Positions 4,432-46,774 of a DNA stretch of 64,000 nucleotides are shown here, piece by piece (position 1 is the first letter of the stretch; each line of letters starts with the position of its first letter). Source of the DNA: an uncultured Thermoplasmata archaeon (GTDB taxonomy: Archaea > Thermoplasmatota > Thermoplasmata > Lutacidiplasmatales > UBA184); NCBI GenBank assembly GCA_963749195.1, contig CAVVLX010000006.1, forward strand, positions 862,722 to 926,721, given 5' to 3'. Below the pieces are notes generated by a model. The model ran no database searches, was not told the DNA's origin, and saw only the letters and a program-made list of their open reading frames with translations. Made by a program: the position numbers and the translations under genes.

Positions 4432-5403
4432 GCCTCTCCGGCTTCCCCGGTCACCGCTCCTGAGACTCGGTGGCCTGCACGCACCCGCGCTTTGGGACCG
4501 AGGAGGGACCCGACCACAACGGCTTCGCGCTCGATCGTCGCGCCCGACATGACGATCGAATTCTCGACGTGCGCTCCGGGCTCGACCGTGACGTCATCCT
4601 CCAGCGTCACGTAGGGACCGAAGGAAGCCCCCGAAGCGGTCACGTCGACTCCGTAGGCCACGGGTCCCTGGCCCACCGATCCTTTCGGAAGGACTCCGCG
4701 ACCTCCTCGACCAGCGTCAAACAGGAGACGTTGAGAGCGTAGGAGCCGCTCGGGGGTGCCGGCATCGTCCCAGAATCCCTGGAATCGGAAACCGAAGACC
4801 CGACGCGCCAGCAGGCCGGGCACGGTATCCCTTTCGAAGTTCGTGGGAACTCCCTCGGGCAATCGATCCAACACCTCCCGGGACCAAACCGCGAGGCCGG
4901 CGTTGATCCAATGGGACGGTGCGTCCTGGGGATCTGGTTTCTCGACGAACCCCGTGATCCGGTCCTGATCATCGAGCGCGGCGACGCCGTAGGGTCGAGT
5001 ATCTTCGACTTCGGTCAGCGCCATGGTCCCGATCCCCCCATGCCTTCGGTGCGCCCCGATCAGTGCCGGCACGTCGAGCGATGCGATGACGTCGGAATTC
5101 ATCAGCAGGAACGGGTCACTGATTCCCTTCTCGGCGTTCTTCATCCCGCCCCCCGTTCCGAGGGGCTCTCGTTCGGGAACCGAACGGATCGGGACTCGGA
5201 ACGGGTGCGCTCGAACGTAGGCTTCGATCATTTCGGACTTGTATCCGGTTGCGAGGACGATCTCTTCGAGGTCCGGCGGAACGAGGTCGAGCACGTGGTA
5301 GAGCATCGATTTGCCGGCGATCGGAATGAGCTGTTTCGGCACGGAGTAGGTGACCGGTCGCAGGCGCGTTCCAAAACCTCCGATCAAGACGATGGCTTTC
5401 ACG
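4428..5403 (-). CDS. Sugar-1-phosphate nucleotidyltransferase (NDP-sugar pyrophosphorylase) with C-terminal left-handed beta-helix
   Basis: ORF 4428-5444. VKAIVLIGGFGTRLRPVTYSVPKQLIPIAGKSML is the classic G-x-G-T-R-L NTP-transferase N-terminus. The C-terminal hexapeptide-like repeats resemble GlmU / GDP-mannose pyrophosphorylase-type enzymes. GTG 5403 (GGAG 8 nt upstream) fits the family N-terminus better than ATG 5444. Confidence 0.8.
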
Positions 5404-21602: not shown

Positions 21603-23439
21603 ACACGCCGAAGGAAAACGGGTTCAGTTCGAGCCGTTGCGCGGATCCTGAGTCCACGAGGTCTGGGAGGCGACTCCCCGGTCCTGCCCATCGTCGGTCT
21701 GAAGAATCGAGTCGACGTTGCCACGTACCTTCCGGAAAAGGAAGGAGTTGCGACCCGAGAGTCGTCCCGAAGTGATAGATCACGACGACGGCCGGTCGAG
21801 CCCCCGGCGCCGGGAAGGTGACGACCACGGAGTTCTCGGGGCCCAAGGAACGAATGTCCTCGGGCCGCCATCGGGCACGCGCTCCCAGCGCCCGGCGCAG
21901 CGAGAGCAGGTGGCGATAGAGGTCGAGGAGCTCCCGATGACCGGGTCGTTCCCTACGATCGAAGTCGATGCGGGATCTCTCGAAGGTGGTGAGGGACTGA
22001 GGGTCGGGGATTTTCTCGGGGTTGGGGTGCCCGGGAAACCCCGCGCGCCGTCCTTCGCGGACCCGAATCCCGAGCTGGGGGTCGTGATGGCTCGTAAAGT
22101 ACAGGAACGGGGCCGTTTCTCCGTACTCCTCGCCCATGAAGAGCAGCGGTAGGTAGGGAGAAAGGAGGAGGAACCCGGCGGCGAGCTTGAGCGGTTCGAA
22201 AGGGACGAGGGCGCTCAATCGTTCTCCGAACGGCCGATTCCCGATCTGATCATGGTTTTGGACGCAAACGACGAAGTGATCAGGTCCGAGGTCGCCCGCG
22301 GACGCGCCGTGCCGTCGACCTCGGTATGCCGAATACTGTCCGGTCAACACGAAAGCGTCCCGCAATGCCGCGGGAATCGACTCCGGCGACACAAAGTCCG
22401 CGTAGTACCCATCTCGTTCCCCCGTCACCCGACTGTGGAAGGCGTGGTGGAAGTCGTCGTTCCACAGCGCATCGAATCCAAGCCCGCCGCGAACCCGCGG
22501 GAGCACCACCCGTGGATCGTTGAGGGAGCTTTCCGCAATCATGTGCACGAGTCGCCCTTGCTCCGTGCCGATGGCGTGAATCCTATCGGCGAGTTCGGCC
22601 AGAAACGGTTGGGCGGTAGGGTCGATGATCGCGTGAATCGCATCGACGCGGAGACCGTCAAGGTGCCCCTCCCGCACGAGATACGCGGCGCTTTCGAGAA
22701 AGTATCGGCGGACGTGGTCGCTGCCCGCGCCATCGAAGTTGAGCGCGGCTCCCCAGGGAGTCCGATAGCCCGCGGTGAAATACGGCCCGAACTCCTCCAG
22801 GTGGCTTCCCTCCGGTCCGACGTGATTGTACACGACGTCGACGATCAGGGCGAGCTCGCGCGCATGGCAGGCGTCCGAGAGTTGCTGGAGCCCCGCGATT
22901 CCCCCGTAGGAATGCTGCACGGCAAACGGGAAGACCCCGTCATAGCCCCAGTTGCGCGTTCCGGGGAAGGCCGCGACCGGGAGCAGTTCGATCGCGGAAA
23001 TTCCGAGGTCATGTAACGCATCGAGGCGATCCGCGACGCCCGCGAACGTTCCGCTCGACGAGAACGTGCCTACGTGGAGCTCGTAGAACACCAGCTGCTC
23101 CCGCGCGATCCCGGCCCATCCGTGGTCCGACCAAACGAACTGCTCGGGGGCAACGATCGCCGAAGGACCCTCCACATCGGCGGGCTGACTTCGGGACGCC
23201 GGATCGGCGCGGAGAGGTCCTCCGTCGAGTCGATAGCCGTATCGACTTCCCGGAGGAACGTCGCCGACGTCGACGCCCACATATCCTTCTCCGAGCGGGG
23301 TCATCGTTGTGCGACGCTTCGCGTCGCCCAAAAGGTCGAGCTCGACGACCTTAGGGGTTGGTGCCCACACGCGAAATCGAACGGTGCGGTCAGAGGTTCG
23401 CGTGGCGCCGAGCGGTTCGGAGAGGTCCAGAGACGTCAC
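21586..23439 (-). CDS. treZ: Malto-oligosyltrehalose trehalohydrolase (TreZ)
   Basis: ORF 21586-23886. VRFRVWAPTPKVVELDL, GISAIELLPVAAFPGTRNWGYDGVFPFAVQHSYGG, VDVVYNHVGPEG, GLRVDAIHAI. GTG 23439 overlaps the glgB stop (GTGA) and gives a family-typical 617 aa. The 149-aa upstream extension overlaps glgB and is Arg-rich. Confidence 0.9.
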   Translation of the reverse strand: MTSLDLSEPLGATRTSDRTVRFRVWAPTPKVVELDLLGDAKRRTTMTPLGEGYVGVDVGDVPPGSRYGYRLDGGPLRADPASRSQPADVEGPSAIVAPEQFVWSDHGWAGIAREQLVFYELHVGTFSSSGTFAGVADRLDALHDLGISAIELLPVAAFPGTRNWGYDGVFPFAVQHSYGGIAGLQQLSDACHARELALIVDVVYNHVGPEGSHLEEFGPYFTAGYRTPWGAALNFDGAGSDHVRRYFLESAAYLVREGHLDGLRVDAIHAIIDPTAQPFLAELADRIHAIGTEQGRLVHMIAESSLNDPRVVLPRVRGGLGFDALWNDDFHHAFHSRVTGERDGYYADFVSPESIPAALRDAFVLTGQYSAYRGRRHGASAGDLGPDHFVVCVQNHDQIGNRPFGERLSALVPFEPLKLAAGFLLLSPYLPLLFMGEEYGETAPFLYFTSHHDPQLGIRVREGRRAGFPGHPNPEKIPDPQSLTTFERSRIDFDRRERPGHRELLDLYRHLLSLRRALGARARWRPEDIRSLGPENSVVVTFPAPGARPAVVVIYHFGTTLGSQLLPFPEGTWQRRLDSSDRRWAGPGSRLPDLVDSGSAQRLELNPFSFGVFDRSR

Positions 23440-25379
23440 CTCCCCGCGCGGAGCAAGAGAGCCCCGAGGGGAGGCAGGTCGAGCACCACGGAATCCGGGA
23501 GTCCGTGCAGTGGCGTAGCGGTCGCCTCGGCGACGCCGGTGCTTCCCGCCCCGCTCCCTCCGAACTCGGTCGCATCGCTGTTGGCGGCGATCGTCCAACT
23601 GCCCTCGATCGGGACTCCGATCCGAAATGCCGCTCGGGGGACTGGGGTGAAATTCAGGACGGCCAGCAAAGCCTCCGAAGCCCCAGATCCACGTCGGAGC
23701 AACGACAGCACGCTCTGTGCCGCGTCCTTCGGCTCGACCCAGGCGAATCCGCTGGGGTCGTAGTCGCGCGCGTACAGTGCGGGGGTCGATCGATAGATTT
23801 CGTTCAATCGTCGAACCCACGCTTGCATACCGGCATGGGGCGCTGACTGCAGCAAGTGCCAGTCGAGGCTCCGGTCGTGCTCCCACTCCCGCTCTTGGCC
23901 GAACTCGTCTCCCATGAACAGCAGCTTCTTCCCGGGCATCACGAACATGTACGCGTACAGCAATCGAAGATTGGCGCGCCGCTGCCAGAAGTCTCCCGGC
24001 ATTTTCCCGAGGAGCGATCCCTTCCCGTAGACGACCTCATCGTGGGAAAGGGGGAGAATGAAGTTCTCGTGGTAGGCATACACCATTCGGAATGTTAGTT
24101 CATCGTGATGCCAGCGCCGATACGCCGGATCCCGACCAAAATACTCGAGCGTATCATGCATCCAACCCATGTCCCACTTGTAGCCGAACCCGAGTCCCCC
24201 CACGGTCGTGGGTCGAGAGACCATCGGCCACGCCGTCGACTCTTCGGCGATCGTCTGCGTGCCGGGAAACTGTCCGTACAGGGATTCGTTCAACCAGCGA
24301 AGAAAGTGGATCGCGTCGAGATTCTCGCGACCCCCTTGTTCGTTCGCCAGCCACGCACCCGGCGCCCGGGAGTAGTCCAGGTAGAGCATCGATGCAACCC
24401 CATCCACTCGAATTCCGTCGCCGTGGTACCGATCCAGCCAGAACGCCGCGCTGCTGCCGAGGAAGCTGCGGACCTCGTGGCGACCGTAGTTGAAGAGAAA
24501 CGTGTTCCAATCCGGATGATATCCCCGCCGGGGGTCCGCATGCTCGAAGAGGTGCGTTCCATCGAAGTACGCGAGTCCGTGCTCGTCACGGGGAAAGTGC
24601 GACGGAACCCAATCGAAGATCACGCCCACGCCCGCTTGATGGAGCGCGTCGACCAGGCCCATCAGTTCCTGGGGCGTGCCGTAGCGTGCGGTCGGGGCGA
24701 ACAAACCGATCGGCTCGTAGCCCCAGGATCCGTAGAAGGGATGTTCCATTAGCGGGAGGAACTCGACATGCGTGAAGCCCATCTCCTGCGCATACTCGAC
24801 CAACTTCGGTGCGGCCTCCCGATAGGTCAGCGATCGATTCTCCTCCTCGGGAACCCGACGCCAGGAACCGAGGTGAACCTCGTAAATCGACACGGGGGCG
24901 TCCAGGCGGAACCGATCGCCCCGCTGCGACATCCATCGGGCGTCGTGCCATTCATAGTCCAGATCCCAGACGACCGAAGCCGTTCCCGGAGGTCGCTCGT
25001 GGAGAAAACCGAAAGGATCAGCCTTGTCCACTCGGAAGCCCGCATAGCGCGATTCGATGTGGTACTTGTAGAGCGCTCCCCGGTGCGCCGACGAGAGCGT
25101 TCCTTGGAAGATTCCCGAACTGCCCTCCTCCCGCAACGAGTCCCGCCGAGGAGTCCACTCGTTGAATTCCCCCACCACGCTCACTCGTTCGGCGTTGGGA
25201 GCCCAGACGGCGAAATGCGTCCCCTGCGACTCCGAGCTTCCCGCCGGATGTGCCCCCATGCGCTCGTACAAGCGCAAATGAGTTCCTTCGTTGAACAGAT
25301 ACACGTCCAGATCGGAGAGCGTCGAAGTGGAAGGTCGCGAGGCGGTGTGAGCGCGCGCTCGCGTCGAGCCTACGGTCAT
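23436..25379 (-). CDS. glgB: 1,4-alpha-glucan branching enzyme (GH13 GlgB)
   Basis: ORF 23436-25643. HFAVWAPNAERVSVVGEFNEW, HPFYGSWGYEPIGLFAPTARYGTPQE, VIFDWVPSHFPRDEHGL, GIRVDGVASMLY, IAEESTAWP. ATG 25379 overlaps the malQ stop (ATGA). Confidence 0.92.
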   Translation of the reverse strand: MTVGSTRARAHTASRPSTSTLSDLDVYLFNEGTHLRLYERMGAHPAGSSESQGTHFAVWAPNAERVSVVGEFNEWTPRRDSLREEGSSGIFQGTLSSAHRGALYKYHIESRYAGFRVDKADPFGFLHERPPGTASVVWDLDYEWHDARWMSQRGDRFRLDAPVSIYEVHLGSWRRVPEEENRSLTYREAAPKLVEYAQEMGFTHVEFLPLMEHPFYGSWGYEPIGLFAPTARYGTPQELMGLVDALHQAGVGVIFDWVPSHFPRDEHGLAYFDGTHLFEHADPRRGYHPDWNTFLFNYGRHEVRSFLGSSAAFWLDRYHGDGIRVDGVASMLYLDYSRAPGAWLANEQGGRENLDAIHFLRWLNESLYGQFPGTQTIAEESTAWPMVSRPTTVGGLGFGYKWDMGWMHDTLEYFGRDPAYRRWHHDELTFRMVYAYHENFILPLSHDEVVYGKGSLLGKMPGDFWQRRANLRLLYAYMFVMPGKKLLFMGDEFGQEREWEHDRSLDWHLLQSAPHAGMQAWVRRLNEIYRSTPALYARDYDPSGFAWVEPKDAAQSVLSLLRRGSGASEALLAVLNFTPVPRAAFRIGVPIEGSWTIAANSDATEFGGSGAGSTGVAEATATPLHGLPDSVVLDLPPLGALLLRAGR

Positions 25380-27400
25380 GATGCTTCCTTTCCTCGGCGG
25401 AGTGAGTCGACCCTGCGAAGAGTTTCCAGGGTTGGAGGATCCTTTTCGAAGTCTCCCCATTCGGTACGCATTCGACGGGCGAAGTTCCGCCGACGGCGGC
25501 CGGCGTATCCCGGAACATTCTGCGGAACGGTCGACCCCTCGAGATCTTCCACGTTCACGAGTACGATACGGGCCGGGGAATCGGCGAGCGCGACGAGCGC
25601 GTTCCGATACGCTTCCCGGGCCGATGCGCTGGGGGCGAGCCAAGGTCCCTTCTCCTGGTCAGCTGTCGCGTCGCGGGTTCTCTCGCGACGATCTTTCCAG
25701 TAGGCCGCAAAGGGAAGCATGTCGTGGGTGTTCATGGACGCGAGCGAGTCTCGAGGGACTCGGCGGAACCGTCCCTCCGGCCCCGGCGCGTCCCACTCCA
25801 GTTGCGCCACGAACGATCGGAGTAGTCCGTGGGTGCGGAGTGCGGTGCGGACTTCCGGCGGAACCGTCCCCAGATCTTCCCCGATGAGGGCGGCGTGGGC
25901 GCGCGACGCCTCGATCAACAGGATCGCGTAGAATTCTTCGGAGTGGTATCGAACATACGCCCCATCCCGAGCCGAGAAGCCCGCGGGGACCCAGAAGAGA
26001 CGGTGGAATCCCATAACATGGTCGATCCGGAGGTATCGGCCCATCGCTAAGTGCGCCCGCAAGGCTGCGCGGTACGATCGATAAGCTTGCTCGCGAATCC
26101 GTACGGGATGTGGCGGAGGCAGGCCCCATTGCTGCCCATCGGGAGCCCCGGGGTCGGGCGGAGAACCGATCTCGGCCCCCGGGACGTAGGCTTCCGGGTC
26201 CTCGAACACATCGAACCCTGCGGGGTGCACGCCGATGGGTAGATCCAGATAGAGCTCGACTCCCAGCCCCTGACCTTCCGCTACGACGCGGCGGAGTTGA
26301 CGATGAGCGACCCACTGGACGTAGCGGTGATACAGCGCGTGCGTGGGGCTCGATGCTCGTCCGTCGGCGGATTGGTCCCCCGAGCGCGCGTACTCCCCTT
26401 CGCGGGACGGCCGTTCTGCCCGAGCGCGAAATCGGGCATATCGGTCGAGCGCCGTCGCTCGAGCGGCAAATCGATGGAACGACGCCCGCCGGCGACTAGG
26501 GGACGCCTCGAGATCGCGCGCCATTTGAGTGAACACCCGGCGACGGAGCCGGGCCACGGCTCGGAAATCGATCACGGTCCGGCGCTCGAGTCGCGCGACG
26601 TCTTTTCGGAATGAGGGAGAATGAACGAGCGTTCGAACCCGTCGGCTATGGTGAAATTCGGGTTCGACGGTCGGGTCGGCATAGACCTCGTTCCAGAAGC
26701 GACGGCTCACCGGACGGTACGGGCTCGGGTCGTAAGGATGGTCGAGAAAGCTCGAGAGCATCGGAAGCGCTCCGACCAGGGACGCGCCGCGATGGCCCGC
26801 CCATCGGACGACTCGTCGTAGCGCGGAGAGATCCCCGCAGCCCCAATTACCCGGCGAACGAAGAGCGTATGTGGGGACGAAGATCCCCCACGACCTTTTC
26901 GAAACAGAGGGGGGGGCGAGCGCGCTCGGCGCGACGAAAAGAGTGGTCGTGACGTGCCAGCGATCGGCGTTCAGTTCGAGCAAGTGGTATCCGATCGGGA
27001 GACGGAACGGGAGGTGCAGCGACCGTCGGGCCCTTCCCCGAGGGCCGCTTCCCGTTCGGACGGACAGGTCCGCCCGACCCTTTCGGCCATCTTCTCGAGT
27101 CAACAGGGCGGTCACCGTCGTCCCCTCCCGGTGGTCGTCGGGGAGGTTGAGCACGAGCCGATGTTCGAGGTTCGGGTGCAGGACGCAGACCGGCGGCACG
27201 ATCGGCGGGGGAGCAGAATCGGCCCGGAGGACTTCCGGCGCATCTTGCGGCCGATCAATCGGAACCCCGAGCAGCCGCAACACGGCACAAAGGGCGGCCC
27301 CGGCAACCGAGCGACGGTGGCCGCCGGTGTCGATGTACACCGGTAGAACTCCATGCTGTTCGGCGAGTTGTGCGAGAGCCCGGGGGCGGTGCCGGGTCAT
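25376..27400 (-). CDS. malQ: 4-alpha-glucanotransferase (amylomaltase, GH77 MalQ), long-N-terminus type
   Basis: WGIFVPTYALRSPGNWGCGDLSALRRVVRWAG, IDHVMGFHRLFWVP, IGEDLGTVPPEV, NTHDMLPFAAYW. 674 aa. Confidence 0.92.
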   Translation of the reverse strand: MTRHRPRALAQLAEQHGVLPVYIDTGGHRRSVAGAALCAVLRLLGVPIDRPQDAPEVLRADSAPPPIVPPVCVLHPNLEHRLVLNLPDDHREGTTVTALLTREDGRKGRADLSVRTGSGPRGRARRSLHLPFRLPIGYHLLELNADRWHVTTTLFVAPSALAPPSVSKRSWGIFVPTYALRSPGNWGCGDLSALRRVVRWAGHRGASLVGALPMLSSFLDHPYDPSPYRPVSRRFWNEVYADPTVEPEFHHSRRVRTLVHSPSFRKDVARLERRTVIDFRAVARLRRRVFTQMARDLEASPSRRRASFHRFAARATALDRYARFRARAERPSREGEYARSGDQSADGRASSPTHALYHRYVQWVAHRQLRRVVAEGQGLGVELYLDLPIGVHPAGFDVFEDPEAYVPGAEIGSPPDPGAPDGQQWGLPPPHPVRIREQAYRSYRAALRAHLAMGRYLRIDHVMGFHRLFWVPAGFSARDGAYVRYHSEEFYAILLIEASRAHAALIGEDLGTVPPEVRTALRTHGLLRSFVAQLEWDAPGPEGRFRRVPRDSLASMNTHDMLPFAAYWKDRRERTRDATADQEKGPWLAPSASAREAYRNALVALADSPARIVLVNVEDLEGSTVPQNVPGYAGRRRRNFARRMRTEWGDFEKDPPTLETLRRVDSLRRGKEAS

Positions 27401-30400
27401 GGCGTCGGCCTGGCCGGACCGAGGATGTAATCGATCCCTCGAAGGGGAACCTCGACCCAGTCTGGGCGGTTCTGGAACTCGTACGCGAGTTCGTAAACCA
27501 CTTTCTCCGCCACGTAGGCTTCGAGCAACAGGTCAAACTCCGCGCGCTCCTTGGGTAGGAACGTGCAGTCCGCCGTTGCGGCACGATATGAACGCAGGTA
27601 CTCCGCACAGACCCATTGGACCCACAAGCGCGCGGCGGGAGCGAGTTCGGAACGCGCGCCGGCGGCGGCCGGGGACGGAACGACGAGCTGCCGCAGGGCG
27701 GCGTTCGCGGCATAATCGAACGACCGGAGCATCCCCGCGACGTCGCGGAGCGGCGAGCGCTTGATCCGACGCTCGCTCACGGGGCGAGAAGGTTCGCCCT
27801 CGAAATCAATGATGATGAACTCCTTCCCGGTCCAGAGGACTTGTCCCAGGTGGAAATCCCCATGGATCCGCGTTCGCTTCGCCGACAGTCGCCGGCCGAG
27901 CAGGGCGCGAAACCGAGCGTCGACCTCCGCTTCGCGAGGCAGGACGCTATCGGCGAGGGTCGCCACCAGACCGGTGAGCGACGACCGATGCTCGCGCAGG
28001 ATCTCGAACGCTTGACGGCGATACGACTGCATCGTTTGATAGATCGAGCGGACATAGAGCGGATCGAAGGGTTCGGGCGCGAACGCGGGATCGACTGAAT
28101 CGCCGGCGAGGGCGCGATGCAGCTCTGCCGTCCGTTGGCCCAAGAGGCGGGCCAATTCGAGATACGGACCGATCAGATCGGCCACCTCCGAGGGCGGCGC
28201 CCCCGAACGGATCTCAAAGCGAGTGGCGGCCCCGTCCGGAAGGGGCCGGCCCGCGGGAAAGCGCGCTCGAACGCGGTCGAAGTAGGCCGACAGATTTCGA
28301 AGCGTCATATCCCACGCGTCGCCCTCATTGGCGACAAATCGATGGACGGTGACGAGCGTCTCCTCCGATCCATGCTCGGGGATCAGTTCGAGCGTCCCGG
28401 CGAGGGCCGCGGTATGCGGAAATCGGTTCCCCGTGGTCAGAAATCGCCCGATCTCGGCCTCGGGGTTGATCCCCGATTCGATCGTGCGGAACAACTTGAC
28501 GATGTATCGGTCCCCAACCCGCGCCGACGAATTCGATTGTTCGACGCGCACGGGCTCCACCGGCAGAGCCAGGTCCTCGAGGAGCGTCTCCCGGTGAAAG
28601 GCGTCGGTGTGGAGGGCGACCAATTCCCCTGCCGACGAATGCTGGCGGGTGCCGTGGGCCATGTGCTCGAGGAGCGCTCGGACGAAGACGGGCTCCTGCG
28701 CCGCATCGTAGAGCACGCTCTTTCCCTCCGGGCCCCCGGGGGCAAAGATGGCCAGCACCGAGGCGGGTGCGGTCTTGAGGATCTCTTCGCCGCGAGGCCC
28801 GTCGGCGAAACCGAGGGGGAGAAGGTACCGCTGGGGATCGCCCGTCGCAAACTCGACCTCCACGACGACGAGTTGGAACGACGCTTCGCCATGGCCCATC
28901 GGGGTCTCCTGACGCCAGTGGACGGCGGTCGGCGTCTGTCCCTTCCCTCGAAACCAGCGCCGTCCCCAGATGAATCCCGGGAGCGCCGCCTGGAGCTTCG
29001 CTCGAACGTCATAATGTTCCACCGTCTCCCAGCCCGGTGGCTCGGCGACCTCGAGCGGCTGCCAGCGTGTGGTCGGCGCCAGGCCGTTTCCGGGGGCCGT
29101 TCGCTCGAGACGGAACCAGAGAAAGTCGTACGGCCCGAGGGAGAGTCGGTAGGGGGACGCTTCGATCTTCGGGAAGACCGTCAACCCCGCCAATTCGACC
29201 GGGACCGCACCCTCATAGGCGCGCAAATCGAGTTCCACGCTTTGCGCGAACCGAGAGAGATTCGCCACAACGAGCACGTTCTGGGTTCCGTCCGTCCGTA
29301 TGTAGGCGAGCGTCCGCGCGTTCTCGGGCCGCAGAAAAATGATCGAACCGCGACCGAAGACTCGGTTCTGCTTGCGGAGCGCGATCAGTCGTTTCGTGTG
29401 CCAGAGCAAGGAACGCGGATTGGCCTGTTGAATCTCGACGTTCACGGCTTCGAAGTGATATTCGGGATCGACGATCACGGGGAGATACAGGCTCTGCGGG
29501 TTCGCCCGGGAGAAGCCCGCATTCCGGTCGGAGCTCCACTGCATGGGGCTCCGAACGCCGTTCCGGTCGCCGAGGAAGATGTTGTCCCCCATGCCGATTT
29601 CGTCCCCATAGTAGAGGACCGGGGTTCCTGGAAGCGAAAGGAGGAGGCCGTTCATCAGCTCGATCAGCCGCCGGTCGTTGTTGAGCAACGGAGCAAGACG
29701 ACGGCGGATCCCGAGATTGACTCGCGCTCGGGGATCGGCTGCGTAGACGCGATACATGTAATCGCGCTCCTCGTCCGAGACCATTTCGAGCGTGAGCTCG
29801 TCGTGGTTCCGTAGAAAGAGCACCCATTGAGCGTCCGCCGGGATCGCCGGAGTCTGTTCCAAGATGTCGACTATCGGAAAACGGCTCTCGGTTCGGGTCG
29901 CCATGAAGAGTCGAGGCATCAGTGGAAAGTGGAACGCGGTGTGGCATTCGTCGCCTCGGCCGGTCCCAAAGTATTGGGCGGCGTCTTCTGGCCACTGGTT
30001 CGCCTCGGCGAGCAGCATTCGACCGGTGAATTTCGAGTCGATGTGCGCGCGCAGCTTTTTCAGAAAGGCGTGGGTTTCGGGAAGGTTCTCGCAGGTCGTG
30101 CCTTCCCGCTTGAAGAGATAGGGCACGGCGTCGAGCCGGAGTCCATCCACCCCCAGGTTCAGCCAGAAGTCGAGGACGTCAAGGACGGAGCGTTGCACCT
30201 CGGGATTGTCGTAGTTTAAGTCCGGTTGATGGAAGTAGAATCGGTGGAAGTAGTACGCGCGCGCGACATCATCCCAGGCCCAATTCGACGTCTCGAAGTC
30301 CTTAAAGATCAGGCGTACGCCGGCGAAGCGGTCGGGCGAATCGCTCCAGATGTAGAAGTCCCGTTCCACCGAGCCGGGGGCCGCGCGTCGCGCGCGTTGG

Positions 30401-30795
30401 AACCAAGGATGTTGGTTCGAGGTGTGGTTGAGGACGAGCTCGGTGATCACCCGGATTCCATGATCGTGGGCGCGTCGTAGAAACCCGCGAAAGTCGCGGA
30501 GGGTTCCGAAACTCGGCTGGACATTGCAGTAGTCGGAGATATCGTAGCCGTCATCGCGCATCGGCGACGGGTAGAAGGGGAGCAGCCAGATCGCGGTCAC
30601 TCCGAGGTCGCGCAGGTAATCGAGCTTCCCGGTGAGCCCGACAAAATCCCCCTGTCCATCGCCGGAACTGTCGGCGTAGGCGCGGACGTGGAGCTCGTAC
30701 ACGAGCGCGTCCTTGTACCACGTCGCCTCATCTTCGCCGGCCACGAATTGGTCGGAGGCGGAGTCGTCGTCGGCGGAGGAACTCTTCACTTTCAT
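27397..30795 (-). CDS. treS: Trehalose synthase fused to maltokinase (TreS-Pep2/Mak)
   Basis: N-terminal GH13 TreS: [85 protein letters not shown]. C-terminal ~450 aa is kinase-like ([27 protein letters not shown]). 1132 aa. Confidence 0.92.
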   Translation of the reverse strand: [1132 protein letters not shown]

Positions 30796-32831
30796 GGAGC
30801 GGCTCTCTGCGGCTCGAACGCGAGAATGTGGGCCGGGATCTCTTGGGGGCGCAGCTCCACGAAATTACGGCGCCCTTGCCACAGCCATCGACCGCCGGTC
30901 AGGAGGTCGTGAACCTCGAACGGTTGGTCGGAACCCAGCCCGATGGAACCCAAGTCGAGATCGGTCCACCCCGCTTGGACGTGCGTCGGGTCGAGGTTCA
31001 CAAAGATTAGCAACCGGTCCCTCCCATCGGCGGTCGATCGGGAGTAGCCGAGGATCCGGTCGTTATCGACCGATTGGAAGTGAAGAGTTCCGGCCTCGCG
31101 GAGGGCTCGATGGTCGTGACGGAGTTGATTCACTCGAGTGACGACGTTGGCGATTGAGCGGGGTGCGTCTCGGTCCCAGACGCGCAGCTGATACTTTTCG
31201 GAATCGAGGTACTCCTCCGAACCCGGGTGTAGCGGTCGAGACTCGGTGAGCTCGAATGCCGGCCCATAGATGCCGTAGTTGGGAGAGAGCGTCGCGGCCA
31301 GTACGAGTCGGGCCACGAACGCGGGTCGACCTCCTTGTTGCAGATACTCGGTAAGGATATCGGGGGTGTTCGGCCAAAGATGCGGGCGAAAGTACTCTCG
31401 CACGACTGGACTGTTGATCTCCTCAACGTAATCCTGGAGCTCCGTCTTGGAATTCCTCCAGGCAAAGTAAGTGTATGAGTGCGTAAAACCGACTTTCGCT
31501 AAGTTGTACATGACCTTCGGACGCGTGAACGCTTCCGCGAGGAACATGACTTCAGGATGCTTCGAGCGGACCGTCGCGATCAGCCACTCCCAAAATGGGA
31601 ATGGCTTGGTGTGGGGATTGTCCACGCGAAAGCGTCGAACTCCCTGATCGATCCAGAAATCAACGACCTCGCGAAGCGCCTCCCACAATTCGGGCCACGC
31701 GGCAGACTCGAAATCAAATGGGTAGATGTCGTCGTACTTCTTTGGGGGATTCTCCGCCGGGCGAATGGAGCCATCCGCCCGGTGGCGGAACCAGTTGGGG
31801 TGCTCCGATACCCAAGGATGATCGGGCGAACATTGAAAGGCGAGGTCGAGAGCGACATCCAGCCCCTGAGCCCGGGCCGACGCCAACAGGTGTTGGAACT
31901 CTTCCAGGGTGCCTAAGTCGGGGTGAATGGCAGTGTGTCCACCGACGGCCGAGCCAATCGCCCACGGGCTGCCGGGATCCGAATCGGTCGCGATGGGGTC
32001 GTTGTTCGGCCCGCGACGATGCTCGATGCCGATGGGGTGGATCGGGGAGAGATAGACCACGTCGAACCCAAGGCCCGCGATGTACGGGAGCCATTGTTCG
32101 ACGTCGGCGAATGTTCCGGATCGGCCCCGAACATTGGCGGTGGAGCGCGGAAACAACTCGTACCAAGCGCTACATCCCGCATCCGCAGGGTCGACCGTCA
32201 CTCGAAGGTTATGCCGCTCGATCGTGACCCGGGCAGGCTCGGGTTCTACGGAGAGTTCCTCGGGGGATAGCGCAAGCGCCCGCGCCACGGCCGCTGCGGC
32301 GTCGCTTTCGACAAGGTGCTCCAGCTCGGTGGCGGCCTGGCGGATCCGCCGAGCCATCGATCCCCGGGCACTTTCCAGCAGGGTCCGAAGAATCGCAACT
32401 CCCTCGGACAGATCGGCCGGTTGCCAGGACCGGTTGACGGTTCGCTTTCTCAGCTCCTCGCGCCAAGTACTTAGGGGATCCACCCAAGCACGGACGCCGT
32501 ACTCGAAGGTGCCCATCTCCGGCAGCGGGAAGCTTGCCTGCCAGCGATCGTTGTTCAGCGGTCGCATCCGCACCCTCGACCAGAAGCGCGTTCCGAGGCG
32601 GCGGTACTCGAGGAAGGCGGTGATCGCGTCCGTGCCGTCGACGAAAATGTCCGCCTCTACTCTTACCGAATCCCCGGCCAGTCGACGAATGGGGTATCGT
32701 CCTCCGTCGACCGCTGGAGTCACGTTCTCAATCGCGACTCGCCTTCGGCCATCGGGTAGTTTCGTCAGATCCTCGCTCCGATCTCCACAGGCTTCGGCGG
32801 GACAAGCTCTGACGGAGATGCGACCGTTCAA
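30792..32831 (-). CDS. glgE: Alpha-1,4-glucan:maltose-1-phosphate maltosyltransferase (GlgE)
   Basis: GlgE-specific N-terminus IENVTPAVDGGRYPIRRLAGDSVRVEADIFVDGTDAITAFLEYRR...NNDRWQASFPLPEMGTFEYGVRAWVD. Catalytic region FRVDNPHTKPF, LAEAFTRP. Confidence 0.92.
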   Translation of the reverse strand: MNGRISVRACPAEACGDRSEDLTKLPDGRRRVAIENVTPAVDGGRYPIRRLAGDSVRVEADIFVDGTDAITAFLEYRRLGTRFWSRVRMRPLNNDRWQASFPLPEMGTFEYGVRAWVDPLSTWREELRKRTVNRSWQPADLSEGVAILRTLLESARGSMARRIRQAATELEHLVESDAAAAVARALALSPEELSVEPEPARVTIERHNLRVTVDPADAGCSAWYELFPRSTANVRGRSGTFADVEQWLPYIAGLGFDVVYLSPIHPIGIEHRRGPNNDPIATDSDPGSPWAIGSAVGGHTAIHPDLGTLEEFQHLLASARAQGLDVALDLAFQCSPDHPWVSEHPNWFRHRADGSIRPAENPPKKYDDIYPFDFESAAWPELWEALREVVDFWIDQGVRRFRVDNPHTKPFPFWEWLIATVRSKHPEVMFLAEAFTRPKVMYNLAKVGFTHSYTYFAWRNSKTELQDYVEEINSPVVREYFRPHLWPNTPDILTEYLQQGGRPAFVARLVLAATLSPNYGIYGPAFELTESRPLHPGSEEYLDSEKYQLRVWDRDAPRSIANVVTRVNQLRHDHRALREAGTLHFQSVDNDRILGYSRSTADGRDRLLIFVNLDPTHVQAGWTDLDLGSIGLGSDQPFEVHDLLTGGRWLWQGRRNFVELRPQEIPAHILAFEPQRAAP

Positions 32832-36427: not shown

Positions 36428-37108
36428 TTAGATTGGGCGAAGACCGCGTCCGAGGCGTCGCAGCGTGGTTCGGACGAAAAGCCGGGCCCGAGCGAATCCC
36501 GCCAACGAATCTCCAACTCCGCTTACCTTGCCTTGGCGGATGGCCTCCACGAGGTCCTCGAGCGACGCGATCGCCGGAGGGAACTCGGTATACGCCCGTC
36601 CAAGGTCCCTCAAATCGTGGGCGTCACTCCCCCCCGTCGTCCCCAGTGCTCGACGCGTCGCGATGACCTCGGCGTGCGCGTTCGCGAGGGCGGAATTGTG
36701 CCCATTCACGGCCTCGATCGCCGTCACCGCGGCAGTCTCCGCCAGCCGCGGGCCCACTCCATGAGCCAAACGCATCGGGTGGGCTAAGATCGAGATGCCG
36801 CCATGAGTTCGGACCCAATCGAGGGTTTCATCCAGGGGATGATAGATCGGCGGAAGCTCGGACACTCCGTAAACGAGGAGGTGACCCTCGACGGTGGAGA
36901 CCTCGATTCCCGGAAGGAACCAGAGCTTGGGATATTGTCGATTCAGGTCGCGGAGGGCGGCATGGCTGACGATCGTATTGTGATCCGTCAGCCCGAACCC
37001 CTGTAGGCCCAGCACGCCGAGCTGATCGGCGATCGCGGGGAGAGACATCACCGAATCCGGAGACGACCGACTGTGAACGTGAAGGTCCAGCCGAAGTTGT
37101 CCGTTCAT
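36428..37108 (-). CDS. PHP-domain metal-dependent phosphoesterase
   Basis: ORF 36428-37237. LDLHVHSRSSPDS, GLTDHNT, GIEVSTVEGHLLVYG, LAHP, GGSDAH. ATG 37108 overlaps the metG stop (ATGA). Confidence 0.85.
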   Translation of the reverse strand: MNGQLRLDLHVHSRSSPDSVMSLPAIADQLGVLGLQGFGLTDHNTIVSHAALRDLNRQYPKLWFLPGIEVSTVEGHLLVYGVSELPPIYHPLDETLDWVRTHGGISILAHPMRLAHGVGPRLAETAAVTAIEAVNGHNSALANAHAEVIATRRALGTTGGSDAHDLRDLGRAYTEFPPAIASLEDLVEAIRQGKVSGVGDSLAGFARARLFVRTTLRRLGRGLRPI

Positions 37109-39365
37109 CGGACCCGCACCCCTCGCGTCGGACCCTGCGGCACCAGCACGGGAGCCTCGGGGCCGAACGCTAGCAGTTCCCCGTCGGCGTCCGGGAGTAG
37201 CGGGACACGAACCACCCCGCGCGTGCCAATCGGCCACCGCCCCGCTACCGACACGGAACGTTCGCCGATGTCGACGAGCGACCGCTGGGGATCCATCGTC
37301 TGCACGACCTCGCCGACGACCAGGGGGTTGAGATCGAACTGCTCGTAGCTGATGGTGGGGGGACCCTCGGGGACTCCGACAACGGACTGCCCATTAGCCA
37401 CCGTCGGGGGGGGCGCGAGAAGAACGACCCGACCACCGGAATCCGCAGCGAGAAGCATCCCTTGCGAGGTGATGCGTCGGATCGTCCGGGGCGCGAGGTT
37501 CGCGAGAATGACGATTCGCTGTCCGATCAGATCTTCCGGAGTGAAGAACGGGCGGACGCCGGCGACGACGGTCCGGGGTCGAGATTCTCCAAGATCCACG
37601 GAGAGAATGTAGAGCTTGTCGGCCGAAGGGTGCGGCTCCACCCGGACGATCTGGCCTGCCCGAACGCCGAGGGGGACGGACTCGACGCCGGCTGGGGATT
37701 CCCTCGTGCGGTCGGAGGATTTGCGTTCGGGGGTTTCCTTGCGCGGGAACAGAGGACGAATCTCCCCGAGCTCTTGGCCGGGGGGCGGGGGCACCAATAC
37801 CTGATCCCAATCGCCCGAGGACGGGGGAGCCGGAAACCCGAGCATTCTCCAGAGCTCGGCGGATGAAAAGGGAAGAACAGGGGCTAGCCAGATGGCCACG
37901 GCCTTCAGCAACCACAACCCTTCGTACAGCGTCTCTCGGCGCGCCGCCTCCGAGGATTGCCACGGTCGCGCCTCGTGGATTCGTCGGTTCGCCTCTCGAA
38001 TCTCCTCGAGCACGAGGTCCAGGGCCTCCTTCAGATGGACCGCTTCGTACTCGGCGGTAATCCGATCGTGTTGCGCACGAATGCGAAGACCGACTCCACC
38101 GGCTCGCTGGGAATCCCACTCCGCCGGCGGTACCGGTACGCGGCCATGCTCCCGGTCGCGAACCAGGGCCAGAATCCTTTGGGCGAGGTTGCCGTACTGA
38201 TTCGAAAGTACCTCTTCACTGAGCTGCTCGAGCTCCTTTCGATCAAAGTTCGTGTCGTGGTTCTGCGGAGCTAGGTGCGTCGCATAAAATCGGATCACAT
38301 CCGGAGCGAATCGTCCCAAGAGAGACGGAATGAAGGCCTCCTCGTCCTCCGTCCGAGACTTGGAGATCTTCTCTCCGCCGATGTTCATCCATTCGTTGGC
38401 GGGCACATCATAGGGGAGCTGGAAACCCCCCGCTCCGAGCAGCAGTCCGGGGAGAATGATTGTATGGTGGAAGATGTTGTCCTTTCCCACGAAATAGTAC
38501 TGCCGGACCCGCTCGCCCGGATCCCAATACCGCTTCCATGCAGCCTCGCGACCGGCGCGGATCGCCCACTCCCGAGACGCCGACAGGTATCCAATCAGCG
38601 CCTCGAACCAGACGTAGAATCGCTTGGAGTCGTAGCCTTCGAGGGGGATCGGAACCCCCCAACTCAGATCTCGGGTGATCGGGGTGGGGCGTAGTCCCGT
38701 TTCCAGAAAATTGCGGGCCGTTCCGCGAACATTGGCGCGCCAATGTTCCTGACGGGCCACATATTCGGAAAGTTGCGAAGCCAGTTTGTCGAGCTCGAGA
38801 TAAAAATGTTCGGAAGGTCGGAAAATCGCCGGCGTGCCGTCGAGACTACATTTGGGGTCGCCCAGTTCCCGCGGGGTCACGACGCGGCCGCAATTGGGGC
38901 ATTCGTCCCCACGCGCATTTGGGAACGCGCAGTGCGGGCAGGTCCCCGTGAGATACCGATCCGGCAGGAAGCGTTGATGCGTCGGGCAAAACGCATTCTC
39001 CTCCGTCTTTCGACGAATAAATCCGTGCTCCAAGAGCGCGAGGAAGACTTCTTTGACGGTCCGTTCGTGTACGACGGTATGCGTGTCCGTATAGAGGTCA
39101 AAGGAGACCCCCAACTGCTGGAAGGCCGCTCGATTGATCTCATGATACCGGTTCGCGGTGACGTCGGGAGTCGTCCCCTCTTTTCGGCCCGGATGAGCGT
39201 GGGAGTGCCGTGCATGTCGGAGCCGGACACCATGAGTACCTCGTCGCCGCGCAGTCGATGGAATCGAGCGAATACATCGCCGGGCAGGTAGGCGCCCGCG
39301 AGGTGACCGATGTGGAAGGGGCCGTTGGCATACGGCCACGCGACTCCGACAAAGATGCGGGACAT
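37105..39365 (-). CDS. metG: Methionyl-tRNA synthetase with C-terminal Trbp111/EMAP-type tRNA-binding domain; frame broken by one nucleotide near 39176-39186
   Basis: ORF 38877-39365 gives [62 protein letters not shown], then goes out of frame. ORF 37105-39546 continues in another frame with [28 protein letters not shown]...CPHC...CPNCG...KISKSR. C-terminal OB domain [22 protein letters not shown]...[19 protein letters not shown]. Confidence 0.92.
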
Positions 39366-39474: not shown

Positions 39475-41777
39475 GTGCCGTCCGAGGACGCTCCTATGAC
39501 CCGCTCTTCGGTCCGAGCCGCGGATCAGGAGATTGGGGTCAAGCATTCGGTTCTAGGCCACGGGTACGTCGTGTTGGTCGACTACATGGGTGAGGATGCT
39601 TCTATCGTTCAGGCGGCTCGAGTCTCGTATGGTGCCGGCACGAAAACTGTTCGGGATGACCGAAGCCTGATCCGTTATCTCCTCCGCCACCGCCATACGA
39701 CCCCTTTCGAGATGGTGGAATTCAAGTTTCTCGTCCGGCTACCAATCTTTGTCGCTCGACAGTGGGTTCGCCACCGTACGGCGTGCCTCGCCGAGGGCAC
39801 TCAGGTTTACTTCGACCTTCCAAGCGGAGTTCGGAGAAAGGGAAACCAGTTGTATCCTCTCAGAGTGGAGGAAATCTGGCGAAAGTTCCAACCCACGCGG
39901 AATCGAGATGTCAACAAACAACGCAACCCACACTTTCGCCGAGACAGGGTGCGAGCCATGTTGCTTCGACAGCTGGACGAGGAGACGCGTGCAGTTCGTC
40001 ACACGCACATCATTGGTGTGACCCAAAACGGTCCGAAGCCGGTGTTCAGGGTCACGCTGGACGATGGTAAACAGATCGATTGCACTTCTGATCACCGCTT
40101 CCTCTTCGAGGAAGGCTGGCACACGCTGGCGGACCGAACCGGCTTACGCGAAGAGAAGGGCCGGGCAGTTTGGGATAAGGGAGTCTATCGGCTGACCGTG
40201 AATGGCGAGCAAATCGTCCGGCCGGCTCTCTATCAAGACCGAGAGTGGCTCGAGCGAGAATATCTCCTAGACCGGCGGCCAATCCGCGATCTTGCGGAGG
40301 CGTGCGGTGTGGGGCCCGGGACCGTTAGGTCGTGGATTCGACGGTTCGATCTTCCCTTATCACCAATCGCAAAAGCGTTTGAACCTGGTAATCACTACGC
40401 ATCACTCCGGCCTAGCAGTCGGGGTATTCCTCGTCCTCGGGCCGTGCCGGGAACGGGTCAGGAAGCCTACACTTCTAAATCGTGGCTCACCGCGAAATGG
40501 GTTAGCGAGGGTCTTTCCGCGAGCCAGATTGCACGAGAATGCGGCGCCAGCATGAACACGGTGCGGAAGTGGCTTCTGGTACACGGCCTTACGAATCATC
40601 CGGCCCATCCTCTTCACCCCGCCCTGGGGCAAGGTCGTGTTCCGTGGAATCGCGGAAAGACCTACAGGTTCGGACCTCATCCACTTGATCCCACTCACCT
40701 GGCCATTTTGCGGGCGGCCCGCGCCGGACCTGCTTCGAACTTCTGGAAGGGTGGGGTGTCCACTGACCGGGAAGGCATTGGTCGATGGACTACACAGATC
40801 GCATCCACAATCCACGAACGGAATCATTGGACCTGCCAACTCTGCTATCATCGCAAGTCCAATCTGCACGCTCACCACATAATCCCGGTCTGGGCAGATC
40901 TTTCGAGGGCTCGGGATCCGCTAAATCTCACCACGCTCTGCGACGCCTGTCACCGGGAGGTACACAAGAACGAGCGGGACTATGTCGAGCGGCTCGGGGG
41001 TTCCCCTGTCGAGGGAACTTGGATCAAGAAAGTTCGAGTTGGATGGAACCGACTGTGCGTGGCCCGTCTCTCCAGAATCGTGAGGATCGAATTTCTGGGT
41101 AAGAGGATGACCTACGACCTGGAAGTGGAGGGACCGTTCCACAATTTCGTCGCTAATGGAATCGTCACCCACAACTCGGTGAACGAGTATTCGGCGCGGT
41201 ATTCTATCGTGCCTGACGAGTACGAAGTCCCCCGGCCCAAGAAATACGTCATCAGTCGACTCGAAACCGGCAGGGAAGAGGCGATCCGCTTCCGTCGGAG
41301 TTAGTCGAACGATTCCGATCGGACCTCGACCGGATTTCAAAGGAGGCGTATGCGGCCTACACGGAAGCCTTGGAGGCCGGCGTCGCTCGTGAGACGGCTC
41401 GCCTCCTATTGCCGGTTTCGTTCTACACGCAATGGTATTGGAAGATCGACCTCTGGAATCTCTTCCATTTCCTATCTCTTCGTCTGGATCCTCATGCTCA
41501 AGAAGAAATCCGCCTCTATGCGGCGGAACTTGCGGCCCTGGTCCGACTCGTTTGCCCTGTCGCCTATGAGGCGTTCGAGGAGTTTGCTTTGCAAGGCTTG
41601 AACTTGAGTCGCCGGGAACAACGAGCGGTCCGAGCTTTACTCGAAGGCGCCACACCCGAGTCGGCCTGTGCTACCGCCGGTCTCCCGCTGCAGCGGGAAG
41701 ATGGGCGACCGATGACGACCGGGGAAGGCGTGGAGTTCTTGGAGAAGCTCGAGCGACTACGCCACTCGGAACTCTGA
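39475..41777 (+). CDS. thyX: Flavin-dependent thymidylate synthase ThyX, interrupted by an intein (39784-41175) and carrying a one-nucleotide frame break near 41229-41240
   Basis: N-extein VLGHGYVVLVDYMGEDASIVQAARVSYG...HTTPFEMVEFKFLVRLPIFVARQWVRHRTA. After the intein, SVNEYSARYS completes the ThyX motif RHRxxSxNExSxRY. The third frame is open from 41223 and reads QEIRHQSTRNRQG...EAYAAYTEALEAGVARETARLLLPVSFYTQWYWKIDLWNLFHFLSLRLDPHAQEEIR (ORF 41370-41777 is its tail). Confidence 0.9.
39784..41175 (+). mobile_element. Intein (464 aa) with HNH homing-endonuclease domain and two HTH modules, inserted in the ThyX signature motif
   Basis: Starts CLAEGTQVYF (block A). CTSDHRF (block B, T-x-x-H). 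Ends MTYDLEVEGPFHNFVANGIVTHN followed by +1 Ser. Internal HNH motif CQLCYHRKSNLHAHHIIPVW...LTTLCDACHREVH. Repeated HTH-like modules (IRDLAEACGVGPGTVRSWIRR; ASQIARECGASMNTVRKWLL). Visibly lower GC than the flanking exteins. Confidence 0.9.
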
Positions 41778-45850: not shown

Positions 45851-46774
45851 TTAATACTGCGGCTTCGCGCGCGTGTACGCGTTGCGGAGCGCCTGCGTGT
45901 CGACGTGCGTGTAGATTTGGGTCGTCGCGACCGAGGCATGCCCGAGCAATTTCTGAATGTAGCGAATATCGCAGCCTCGACTCAGCAAGGCCGTGGCCAG
46001 GGTGTGGCGCAGCATGTGCGGGGTCACGCGCCGGGGAATCGCGGCGTCCTGCGCCGCCCGTCGGATCAACCGCTCCACCGTCACTGGCCCGACCGGGAAG
46101 AGTCGCGGAGTCGATTCCCCGGCCAACGTGCGTTCGGTGAGGTATCGGTCGATCGCCGCCCGGGTCCGGTCTTCGAGAACGACTTCCCGGTCCTTGTCGC
46201 CCTTTCCCGAGCGGACGTGAAGGACGTTGCGTTCAAATTCGAGGTCTTCGAGCTGCAGATGACACAATTCGCCCACCCGCAGCCCGCAGAAGGCGAGCAC
46301 GTGAACGATCGCGGAATCGCGGGGAGATGCCCGGACCGCCTCGAACAGGCGATGCATTTCCTCCTCCGTCAGGTAGTGCGGGAGGCGTTCGGGCCGCCGG
46401 GGCGGTTCTAACCGATCAGCGGTCGTAAGTCCGACGGATCGGAAGAAGCACGCTAGGCCCCGAACGGTCGTGTAGACCGAGTTCTTCGAGTAATGGCGCT
46501 GGAGGACGAGATACTCTCGGAAGGATTCCAGGTCGGCGAGCGTCACATCTTCGGGAGACTTTTGGGCGTAGGAGAGAAACGTCCGCGCGATGTGTCCGTA
46601 CTGTTTCACCGTACACGGGCTTCGCTCCAAGGCCTGAAGCGAGCGTTGGAAACGGTCGACCAAGGCCGGCACGGAGAACGTAGGCCCCGACGGCTCTGCA
46701 TCGGATCCATTGGGGAGAGCCTCCGCACGCCTCCGAGGGGTGCTGCGAGGATGGGGGACGGGATCTGCCGCCAT
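45851..46774 (-). CDS. xerA: Tyrosine recombinase, XerA/XerC/XerD family
   Basis: C-terminal catalytic region GLRVGELCHL..., HMLRHTLATALLSRGCDIRYIQKLLGHASVATTQIYTHV (R..H-x-x-R..Y). N-terminal SAM-like domain. 307 aa. Confidence 0.9.
   Translation of the reverse strand: MAADPVPHPRSTPRRRAEALPNGSDAEPSGPTFSVPALVDRFQRSLQALERSPCTVKQYGHIARTFLSYAQKSPEDVTLADLESFREYLVLQRHYSKNSVYTTVRGLACFFRSVGLTTADRLEPPRRPERLPHYLTEEEMHRLFEAVRASPRDSAIVHVLAFCGLRVGELCHLQLEDLEFERNVLHVRSGKGDKDREVVLEDRTRAAIDRYLTERTLAGESTPRLFPVGPVTVERLIRRAAQDAAIPRRVTPHMLRHTLATALLSRGCDIRYIQKLLGHASVATTQIYTHVDTQALRNAYTRAKPQY

Follow-up and report, generated by a model that had tools for sequence, protein, structure and literature searches.

Introduction

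The closest known relatives of the element considered here are inteins of the thymidylate synthase ThyX. Kelley et al. 2016 gave a ThyX insertion site the name TdS-a, reported a further site "c", assigned the intein of the mycobacteriophage Gizmo to site 'a', and inferred transfer between phage and Streptomyces (PMC5050341). The Ter ThyX intein of Trichodesmium splices experimentally, and engineered split inteins have been made from it (PMC3620165). In a 2025 preprint, in-frame HNH is named as one of the rare non-canonical nucleases of inteins, and thymidylate synthase as one of the hosts. Here we analyse an intein in the thyX gene of an uncultured Thermoplasmata archaeon, which lies in a 64,000-nucleotide stretch of contig CAVVLX010000006.1 (assembly GCA_963749195.1, positions 862,722 to 926,721). 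We refer to this whole stretch as the window and use its numbering throughout.

From its sequence the insert, placed within the signature motif of ThyX, is an intein of class 1 that carries an HNH nuclease and two helix-turn-helix (HTH) modules. We consider it highly probable that this is a mobile intein at the ThyX-a (TdS-a) site that would be spliced from its host protein and would home, and that a frameshift in the assembled host gene is an assembly error. The original prediction for this DNA had recognised the class 1 HNH intein with its two HTH modules in the ThyX motif, and that part stands; its suggestions of a recent invasion marked by low guanine plus cytosine (GC) content, of a possibly new insertion site and of an intact gene do not.

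Architecture of the intein and its host gene

The thyX open reading frame (ORF) as assembled (39475-41304, plus strand) encodes 609 amino acids and reads ...QWVRHRTA:CLAEGTQVYF...FVANGIVTHN:SVNEYSARYS, where colons here and below mark the splice junctions; the N-extein run-up to the first junction is ...PIFVARQWVRHRTA. The start codon is either GTG at 39475 or ATG at 39496, and the database protein P0001 begins at the ATG. The insert of 464 amino acids divides the ThyX signature RHRxxSxNExSxRY into RHRTA:SVNEYSARY, between the residues equivalent to A82 and S83 of the T. maritima enzyme (numbering counted from the aligned sequence). Thy1 and thyX profiles of Pfam and NCBIfam match on both flanks. 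Against TIGR02170 the two halves as assembled score 86.3 and 86.7 bits, each slightly below the cut-off of 87.9, while deleting the insert in silico and adding one C gives a 296-amino-acid ThyX that matches profile positions 2-211 with 199.2 bits. Similarity between the exteins and the solved ThyX structure PDB 6j61 is strong (E=2.9e-80), and the spliced and repaired protein aligns to 6j61 without a gap across RHRTASVNE. As judged from these alignments, removing the intein would restore a contiguous, conserved host protein across a seamless junction.

The splicing elements of a class 1 intein are found at both ends of the insert. Cys1 is encoded at 39784-39786 and block B contains T101-S-D-H104 (40084-40095); C1, T101 and H104 are invariant in an alignment of 20 homologues. 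The C-terminal end, ...HNFVANGIVTH463-N464:S, provides the penultimate histidine, the terminal asparagine and the +1 serine. Cys1 and the terminal HN are present in 132/132 homologues. Both C-terminal profiles score above their cut-offs (Intein_splicing PF14890, 40.7 bits against 35.8; intein_Cterm TIGR01443, 28.6 against 15.6), and the N-terminal Hint subdomain has sequence matches in the PDB to the DnaB and gp41-1 inteins. An AlphaFold2 model built from the 20-sequence alignment has a mean predicted local distance difference test score (pLDDT) of 71, with values of 80-96 in the Hint halves, about 80-85 in the HTH modules and about 71-78 in the HNH domain. A Foldseek search of the PDB with this model returned the Mtu RecA, Ssp DnaB and Npu DnaB mini-inteins with probability 1.00 and a template modelling score to the target of 0.54-0.61, the best matches being Mtu RecA and Ssp DnaB at about 0.59, so that in the model the insert contains a Hint fold. 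The coordinates of all parts are collected in Table 1.

Table 1. Parts of the intein-bearing thyX gene in window coordinates, with the basis of each assignment
Feature	Position	Strand	Basis
thyX N-extein	39475..39783	+	ends ...QWVRHRTA; Pfam Thy1 profile 2-94, TIGR02170
Class 1 intein, Cys1 to Asn464	39784..41175	+	motifs, homologue alignment, AlphaFold2 and Foldseek
N-terminal Hint subdomain	39784..40221	+	block A (Cys1, CLAEGT), block B; pLDDT 80-96
HTH module 1	40231..40353	+	REWLEREY...DLAEACGVGPGTVRSWIRRFDL; Pfam HTH_28 E=1.1e-8, ORF aa 263-292
HTH module 2	40465..40587	+	KSWLTAKW...QIARECGASMNTVRKWLLVHGL; Pfam HTH_23, ORF aa 340-367
HNH (beta-beta-alpha-metal) nuclease, CxxC...CxxC zinc ribbon	40834..40968	+	Pfam PF01844
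C-terminal Hint subdomain, blocks F and G	41044..41175	+	TYDLEVEGPFHNFVANGIVTHN; Pfam Intein_splicing 121-155/155, TIGR01443; pLDDT ~90
First part of the C-extein, same frame as the intein	41176..41233	+	SVNEYSARYSIVPDEYEVP...; +1 Ser = 41176-41178
C5 homopolymer, one base short versus all homologues	41229..41233	+	tblastn frame switch
C-extein, remainder, shifted frame	41234..41777	+	Pfam Thy1 108-191/191, TIGR02170 106-211; stop 41775-41777

The anatomy thus agrees closely with what had been predicted. The ORF reading reproduces the bounds of the insert and both junctions exactly; the predicted Cys1, T-x-x-H, terminal H-N and +1 Ser are all present; the HNH domain takes the place of a LAGLIDADG nuclease; and the two HTH modules said to be similar are indeed homologous. 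The seamless junction is borne out by 6j61, by the full-length TIGR02170 match and also by a natural empty allele described below.

Given these elements, the intein probably undergoes canonical class 1 protein splicing. One precursor would be translated from thyX including the intein, a thioester would form at Cys1, the +1 serine would attack it, and cyclisation of Asn464, helped by His463, followed by an O-to-N shift would complete the reaction. Excision would restore RHRTASVNEYSARY and hence an active ThyX. Because the intein sits inside the active-site motif, the enzyme should stay inactive until it is spliced.

Between blocks A and B the intein also carries a conserved, basic and partly helical insertion (amino acids 14-60, 39823-39963), in which W32, F35-Q36-P37, N40 and Q46 are invariant and which is not found in the mini-intein structures. 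As a speculation, this segment may be an extra DNA-contact element.

The HTH-HNH cassette

The two Hint halves are separated by two HTH modules and an HNH nuclease. In intein numbering the Pfam HTH matches lie at amino acids 160-189 and 237-264, and module 1 forms three helices in the AlphaFold2 model (amino acids 153-187). The modules match each other by BLASTP with E=6e-7 and are, on this similarity, paralogues. The HNH domain scores 26.3 bits against the PF01844 cut-off of 21.4 over amino acids 351-395, with C351, C354, C386 and C389 as predicted zinc ligands and H365, N381 and H390 as predicted catalytic residues. None of these seven residues varies among the 20 aligned sequences, and a strict regular expression for the motif is found in 129 of 132 homologues, the remaining three differing slightly. 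No LAGLIDADG family occurs among the Pfam, NCBIfam and PHROG matches of the intein.

The cassette is matched as a unit by phrog_8446, a family of HNH endonucleases that covers intein amino acids 149-395 (E=1.5e-26), and HNH proteins of haloviruses are matched as well, which supports an origin of the cassette from a free-standing endonuclease. These free-standing phage HTH-HNH homing endonucleases (phrog_8446; halovirus HCTV-5 gp108) contain no intein, and we claim no orthology with them. A structural homologue of the cassette was not established, the Foldseek search with the whole model being dominated by the Hint domain.

As to function, the cassette is most likely directed at intein-less thyX, which it would recognise and nick or cut close to where the intein inserts. 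The HTH-HTH-HNH unit would bind the empty allele around this position, and once the DNA is nicked or cut, repair or gene conversion would copy the intein into that allele.

Both HTH modules are matched one-to-one in cyanobacterial inteins in a four-way alignment, so the two-module state may be old and the one-module form of bacteria may be a deletion. Two further, free-standing proteins, P0355 (648 amino acids) and P0403 (574 amino acids), consist of this HTH module repeated in tandem, about 10 times and about 7 times respectively. Their repeat, KYRDEKWLREQY...IAETCG...T..RW..KHGI, occurs without Hint or HNH domains.

Comparison with known inteins and distribution of the family

The closest published counterpart is the intein of the C1-cluster mycobacteriophages (Gizmo gp97, ZygoTaiga, Cane17 and others), which resides in the same host protein. 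In an alignment of the exteins, RHRSGF:C...VVHN:SYNEESGRY of Gizmo and RHRTA:C...VTHN:SVNEYSARY of the window are both interrupted directly before the serine of S-x-N-E-x-S-x-R-Y, and both inteins are of class 1, with Cys1, HN, +1 Ser and an in-frame zinc-ribbon HNH. By tblastn the Gizmo-type and window inteins are 36-37% identical over the HNH and the C-terminal splicing part, amino acids 315/329-464 (E=4e-16 to 2e-15), whereas the N-terminal halves are beyond tblastn detection and align only with MAFFT. The Gizmo intein is shorter, at 257 amino acids, lacks HTH modules, and has phages and Actinobacteria rather than Archaea as hosts. Horizontal transfer is proposed for the C1-cluster and Streptomyces inteins and for that of the window alike. 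Neither the occurrence of an HNH intein in ThyX nor this insertion site is new to the literature, and the possible novelty of the site raised in the original prediction falls away: the Gizmo intein lies at the same point, this site has been published as TdS-a, and homologous inteins are present in hundreds of metagenomic ThyX proteins.

Three other groups of ThyX inteins can be compared. Inteins of about 380 amino acids with one HTH module, from bacterial metagenome-assembled genomes (MAGs), occupy the same site and share the same blocks with 57-64% identity over the shared parts, but are without about 83 amino acids, the segment in which HTH module 2 lies. Compared with those of the window, their exteins are only about 50% identical, and in many of them ThyX is extended at the C-terminus. 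The HNH inteins of cyanobacterial ThyX (Xenococcaceae locus L066, 2107-4182; L055, 2548-4800; Cyanobium) have two HTH modules and the HNH in about 451 amino acids and are about 35% identical throughout, but their insertion point is five residues further downstream, immediately ahead of the motif serine (THRVGMSFDVQ:C...HN:SFRY). The Ter ThyX intein presumably belongs with these. The Methanomassiliicoccales virus vir335 (L082, BK063680, Caudoviricetes sp., 1671-3155) has a ThyX intein of 247 amino acids with one HTH module and the HNH, 28% identical and inserted two residues downstream (RHRLASY:C...HN:SQQSQRY). Beyond ThyX, the Ssp GyrB intein, reportedly described as an HNH intein by Dalgaard et al. 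in 1997, likewise has HNH in place of LAGLIDADG, in another host protein; here, too, we claim no orthology.

A search with the intein only gave 558 matches, from which 132 sequences were parsed. Thy1 is present in all of the best 120 of the 558, and every one of the 132 parsed inteins lies at RHR(T/M)A:C...HN:S(V/I)NE, so that at least 132 database proteins have a homologous intein at the same position. Among representatives at 50% identity, the intein has matches in 151 clusters with E<=1e-30 and in 785 with E<=1e-10, and nearly all of the strong matches (E<=1e-30) are in Thy1-family hosts. The sequences fall into two length classes. Inteins of about 462-467 amino acids with two HTH modules come, in the genome collection, from Thermoplasmata archaeon MAGs (L001-L012), and those of about 378-384 amino acids with one HTH module from Gemmatimonadota/Longimicrobiales, Planctomycetota, Fibrobacteraceae, Krumholzibacteriia, Chloroflexia, Calditrichaceae and others. 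The window shares the order metG, thyX, aldehyde dehydrogenase with the Thermoplasmata MAG loci, to which it is about 67-69% identical at the nucleotide level through these three genes. This synteny, along with the source names given for intein-free ThyX proteins, assigns the window to that archaeal lineage. On sequence, then, the intein of the window is an archaeal two-HTH member of the ThyX-a (TdS-a) HNH intein family. We found no paper on the archaeal host range or environmental size of this family in the literature. The ThyX intein sequences themselves are public, annotated simply as thymidylate synthase.

This distribution also bears on whether the insert could be an assembly or chimera artefact, or a non-ligating Hint domain of the bacterial intein-like (BIL) type. 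Only the general error-proneness of the assembly speaks for an artefact. Protein clusters that stem independently from many projects, more than 40 of them archaeal and more than 80 bacterial, have the same architecture at the same codon, and the +1 Ser, terminal HN and seamless junction present here are lacking in BIL domains. We regard this explanation as effectively refuted already, and its probability as negligible.

The frameshift in the C-extein

The original prediction had treated the gene as intact. A one-nucleotide deletion in the C5 run at 41229-41233 shifts the frame of the C-extein, and in tblastn alignments with intact homologues the frame changes at 41229-41232. The ORF as assembled consequently stops at 41302-41304, and the last 180 or so residues of ThyX are found in another frame, with their stop at 41775-41777. 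Inserting one C gives ...EVPPAQEIRHQSTRNRQG... and a full-length thyX match; the repaired reading ...YEVPPAQEIRHQSTRNRQG... fits the ...EVPPAEEVRHQS... of the homologues.

Similar lesions are found next door and in sister genomes. The metG gene, divergent from thyX on the minus strand (37105-39365), has a one-nucleotide deletion in an A4 run (39181-39184, T4 on the plus strand), where its homologues read RAEKEGTT. In the sister locus L010 (CAVYTM010000003.1, an MFD bin with a 1.07-Mb contig) the segment 3385-3425 contains a one-nucleotide C insertion (CAGTACCCGTATC), and L010 is 100% identical to P0121, from another assembly, on both sides of the extra C. Taken together, the long-read MFD MAGs L010, L011 and L026 have one-nucleotide indels at differing positions of the intein-bearing thyX, and in short-read assemblies the gene is intact. 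The MFD bins were assembled from Nanopore reads only, with Medaka polishing (PMC12313526), and the contig of the window (942,606 bp) is presumably a long-read Nanopore assembly too. The similar homopolymer deletion in metG, the indels of the sister MAGs and the Nanopore-only MFD assemblies together make an assembly error the probable cause, and we think it very likely that the thyX frameshift is a homopolymer error of long-read assembly and not biology. Within the window, thyX and metG are the only genes with demonstrable frameshifts; a Pfam scan of ten overlapping same-strand ORFs in the window found no split domain. A programmed frameshift was considered and rejected, as all intact homologues read straight through the position.

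It is improbable, by contrast, that thyX is a true pseudogene and the intein a fossil, with dTMP (deoxythymidine monophosphate) supplied by a different route, be it thyA or another copy of thyX at some other genomic position. The assembled frameshift does truncate ThyX past the motif, and P0001, derived from the deposited contig, has the same truncation. However, this is a single lesion in 2.3 kb, it sits in a homopolymer, all catalytic and splicing residues are intact, and the essential neighbour metG has a lesion of the same type; in the sister long-read MAGs the indels fall elsewhere in the gene, and the short-read assemblies are intact.

Evolutionary state and allele types

The intein had also been predicted to have visibly lower GC than its exteins and to be a recent invader. 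Its GC of 0.578 is practically that of the N-extein (0.580) and C-extein (0.588), and the GC at third codon positions is likewise close (0.621 against 0.646 and 0.624). In the archaeal class the mean identity to the window is 78.5% for the exteins and 65.9% for the intein (n=40), and in the bacterial class 50.0% and 59.7% respectively (n=86). That exteins are better conserved than the intein within the archaeal class is as expected for joint vertical descent, while an intein identity above that of the exteins between the archaeal and bacterial classes points to horizontal transfer. Equal composition, an intein more diverged than its exteins, and synteny of the locus across MAGs together mark the intein, by sequence comparison, as an old resident of the lineage and not a recent arrival. 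Its presence in the lineage is sporadic.

The thyX gene as a whole (39475-41777) has a GC of 0.581 against a window mean of 0.627, which places it in the lowest 1.5% of 2.3-kb windows. Lateral transfer may have brought thyX itself into this archaeal lineage.

For ten archaeal alleles, dN/dS by the Nei-Gojobori method is 0.125 in Hint-N, 0.17 in the HTH region, 0.105 in the HNH, 0.16 in Hint-C and 0.03-0.08 in the exteins; dS is saturated (1.5-2.1), making these ratios rough and a qualitative sign of constraint only. All domains of the intein appear to be under purifying selection.

Alleles in other states exist in the same clade. Many intein-free ThyX sequences labelled Thermoplasmata are 77-85% identical to the exteins of the window. 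An orthologous empty allele lies in locus L083 (ENA ERZ27256501 k141_2679481), where the gene at 4001-4906 encodes an intein-free ThyX of 301 amino acids with RHRMA-SVNEYSARYS. The genes around it follow one another as they do in the window, namely metG, thyX, aldehyde dehydrogenase, DUF4147/MOFRL, DAO. The 72 nucleotides around its empty site (TTCGTCGCTCGTCAGTGGATCCGCCATCGAATGGCC:TCCGTGAACGAGTACAGCGCTCGGTACAGTGTCGTG, the colon here marking the insertion point) are identical to the joined exteins of the window at 54 positions, and this site is a candidate homing site. P0250, a metagenomic protein of 506 amino acids from the same clade, retains a mini-intein of about 210 amino acids at the same site, with the HTH and HNH parts deleted, and can be read as the homing cycle at its degenerate stage. 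A single clade with full, empty and degenerate alleles shows the classical signature of such a cycle, and the coexisting states, together with the constraint on the intein, fit a homing cycle that is still running.

The same constraint could be explained if the intein were domesticated, no longer homing, with conditional splicing (in response, for example, to redox state, zinc or DNA damage) providing post-translational regulation of ThyX activity and the cassette acting as a sensor or DNA tether. Purifying selection on all intein domains in a lineage with vertical inheritance would agree with this, as would an insertion in the active-site motif, where the precursor must be inactive, and regulatory roles for active-site inteins have been proposed (PMC5050341). 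However, close intein-free and mini-intein alleles in the same clade are the pattern expected of gain and loss of a selfish element, the catalytic residues of the nuclease are invariant, and no feature here points to a sensor. We therefore find domestication unlikely and prefer a mobile intein that would be spliced and would home.

Several points weigh against this preferred reading, beginning with the saturation of dS already mentioned. The nuclease cassette is without a good match to a solved structure, the best hit of a PDB sequence search being 5h0m at E=0.005, with IscB at about 0.1, and the linkers of the AlphaFold2 model (amino acids 194-225, 279-326 and 404-423) are of low confidence. 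The gene taken as assembled would yield a truncated ThyX, and the long-read origin of the contig is deduced from its size and from the sister MAGs. Finally, splicing, nuclease activity and target site are all deduced from an anatomy that is itself known from sequence.

Multiple insertion points in the ThyX motif

Homologous HNH inteins occur at several points of the same motif. Most representatives have them before S83, as do the window and Gizmo; in vir335 and several representatives they stand before residue 85, in cyanobacteria before S88, and in a divergent Thy1 group among the representatives after S88. A bolder scenario, which we put forward as tentative and in its full form rather doubtful, is that one HTH-HNH intein lineage colonised the ThyX motif in Bacteria, Archaea and their viruses, re-targeting repeatedly within seven codons. 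The two-HTH form of Thermoplasmata would then be actively homing and would have crossed between domains, possibly by way of viruses such as vir335, and changes in HTH copy number (0, 1, 2 and the free-standing 7-10) would shift target specificity.

Other features of the window

Elsewhere in the window a tyrosine recombinase (Phage_integrase with a SAM-like N-terminal domain) is encoded at 45851-46774 on the minus strand. The region 19539-32831, also on the minus strand, holds a series of large genes of alpha-glucan metabolism, namely an alpha-amylase family protein, CBM48 with Alpha-amylase_C, and a 4-alpha-glucanotransferase with MalQ_N. When the window was scanned for tRNAs and Rfam families, a tRNA-Cys was the single hit, and it is uninformative as to taxonomy. 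A scan for sigma-70 promoters and terminators found nothing above shuffled sequences, the sigma-70 model not being applicable to an archaeon.

Significance

For annotation, the truncated thyX of this archaeon is most likely the product of a homopolymer error and is not to be taken as gene loss. Compact inteins that combine an HNH nuclease with HTH units in modular form, and the mini-inteins derived from them, are possible raw material for protein-engineering or nicking tools; the related Ter ThyX intein already serves in split-intein work. A clade that holds full, empty and mini alleles offers a usable natural system for the homing cycle of a non-LAGLIDADG intein. For the family itself, the locus places ThyX-a HNH inteins in Archaea, in the Thermoplasmata, as part of a group that is very large in environmental data.

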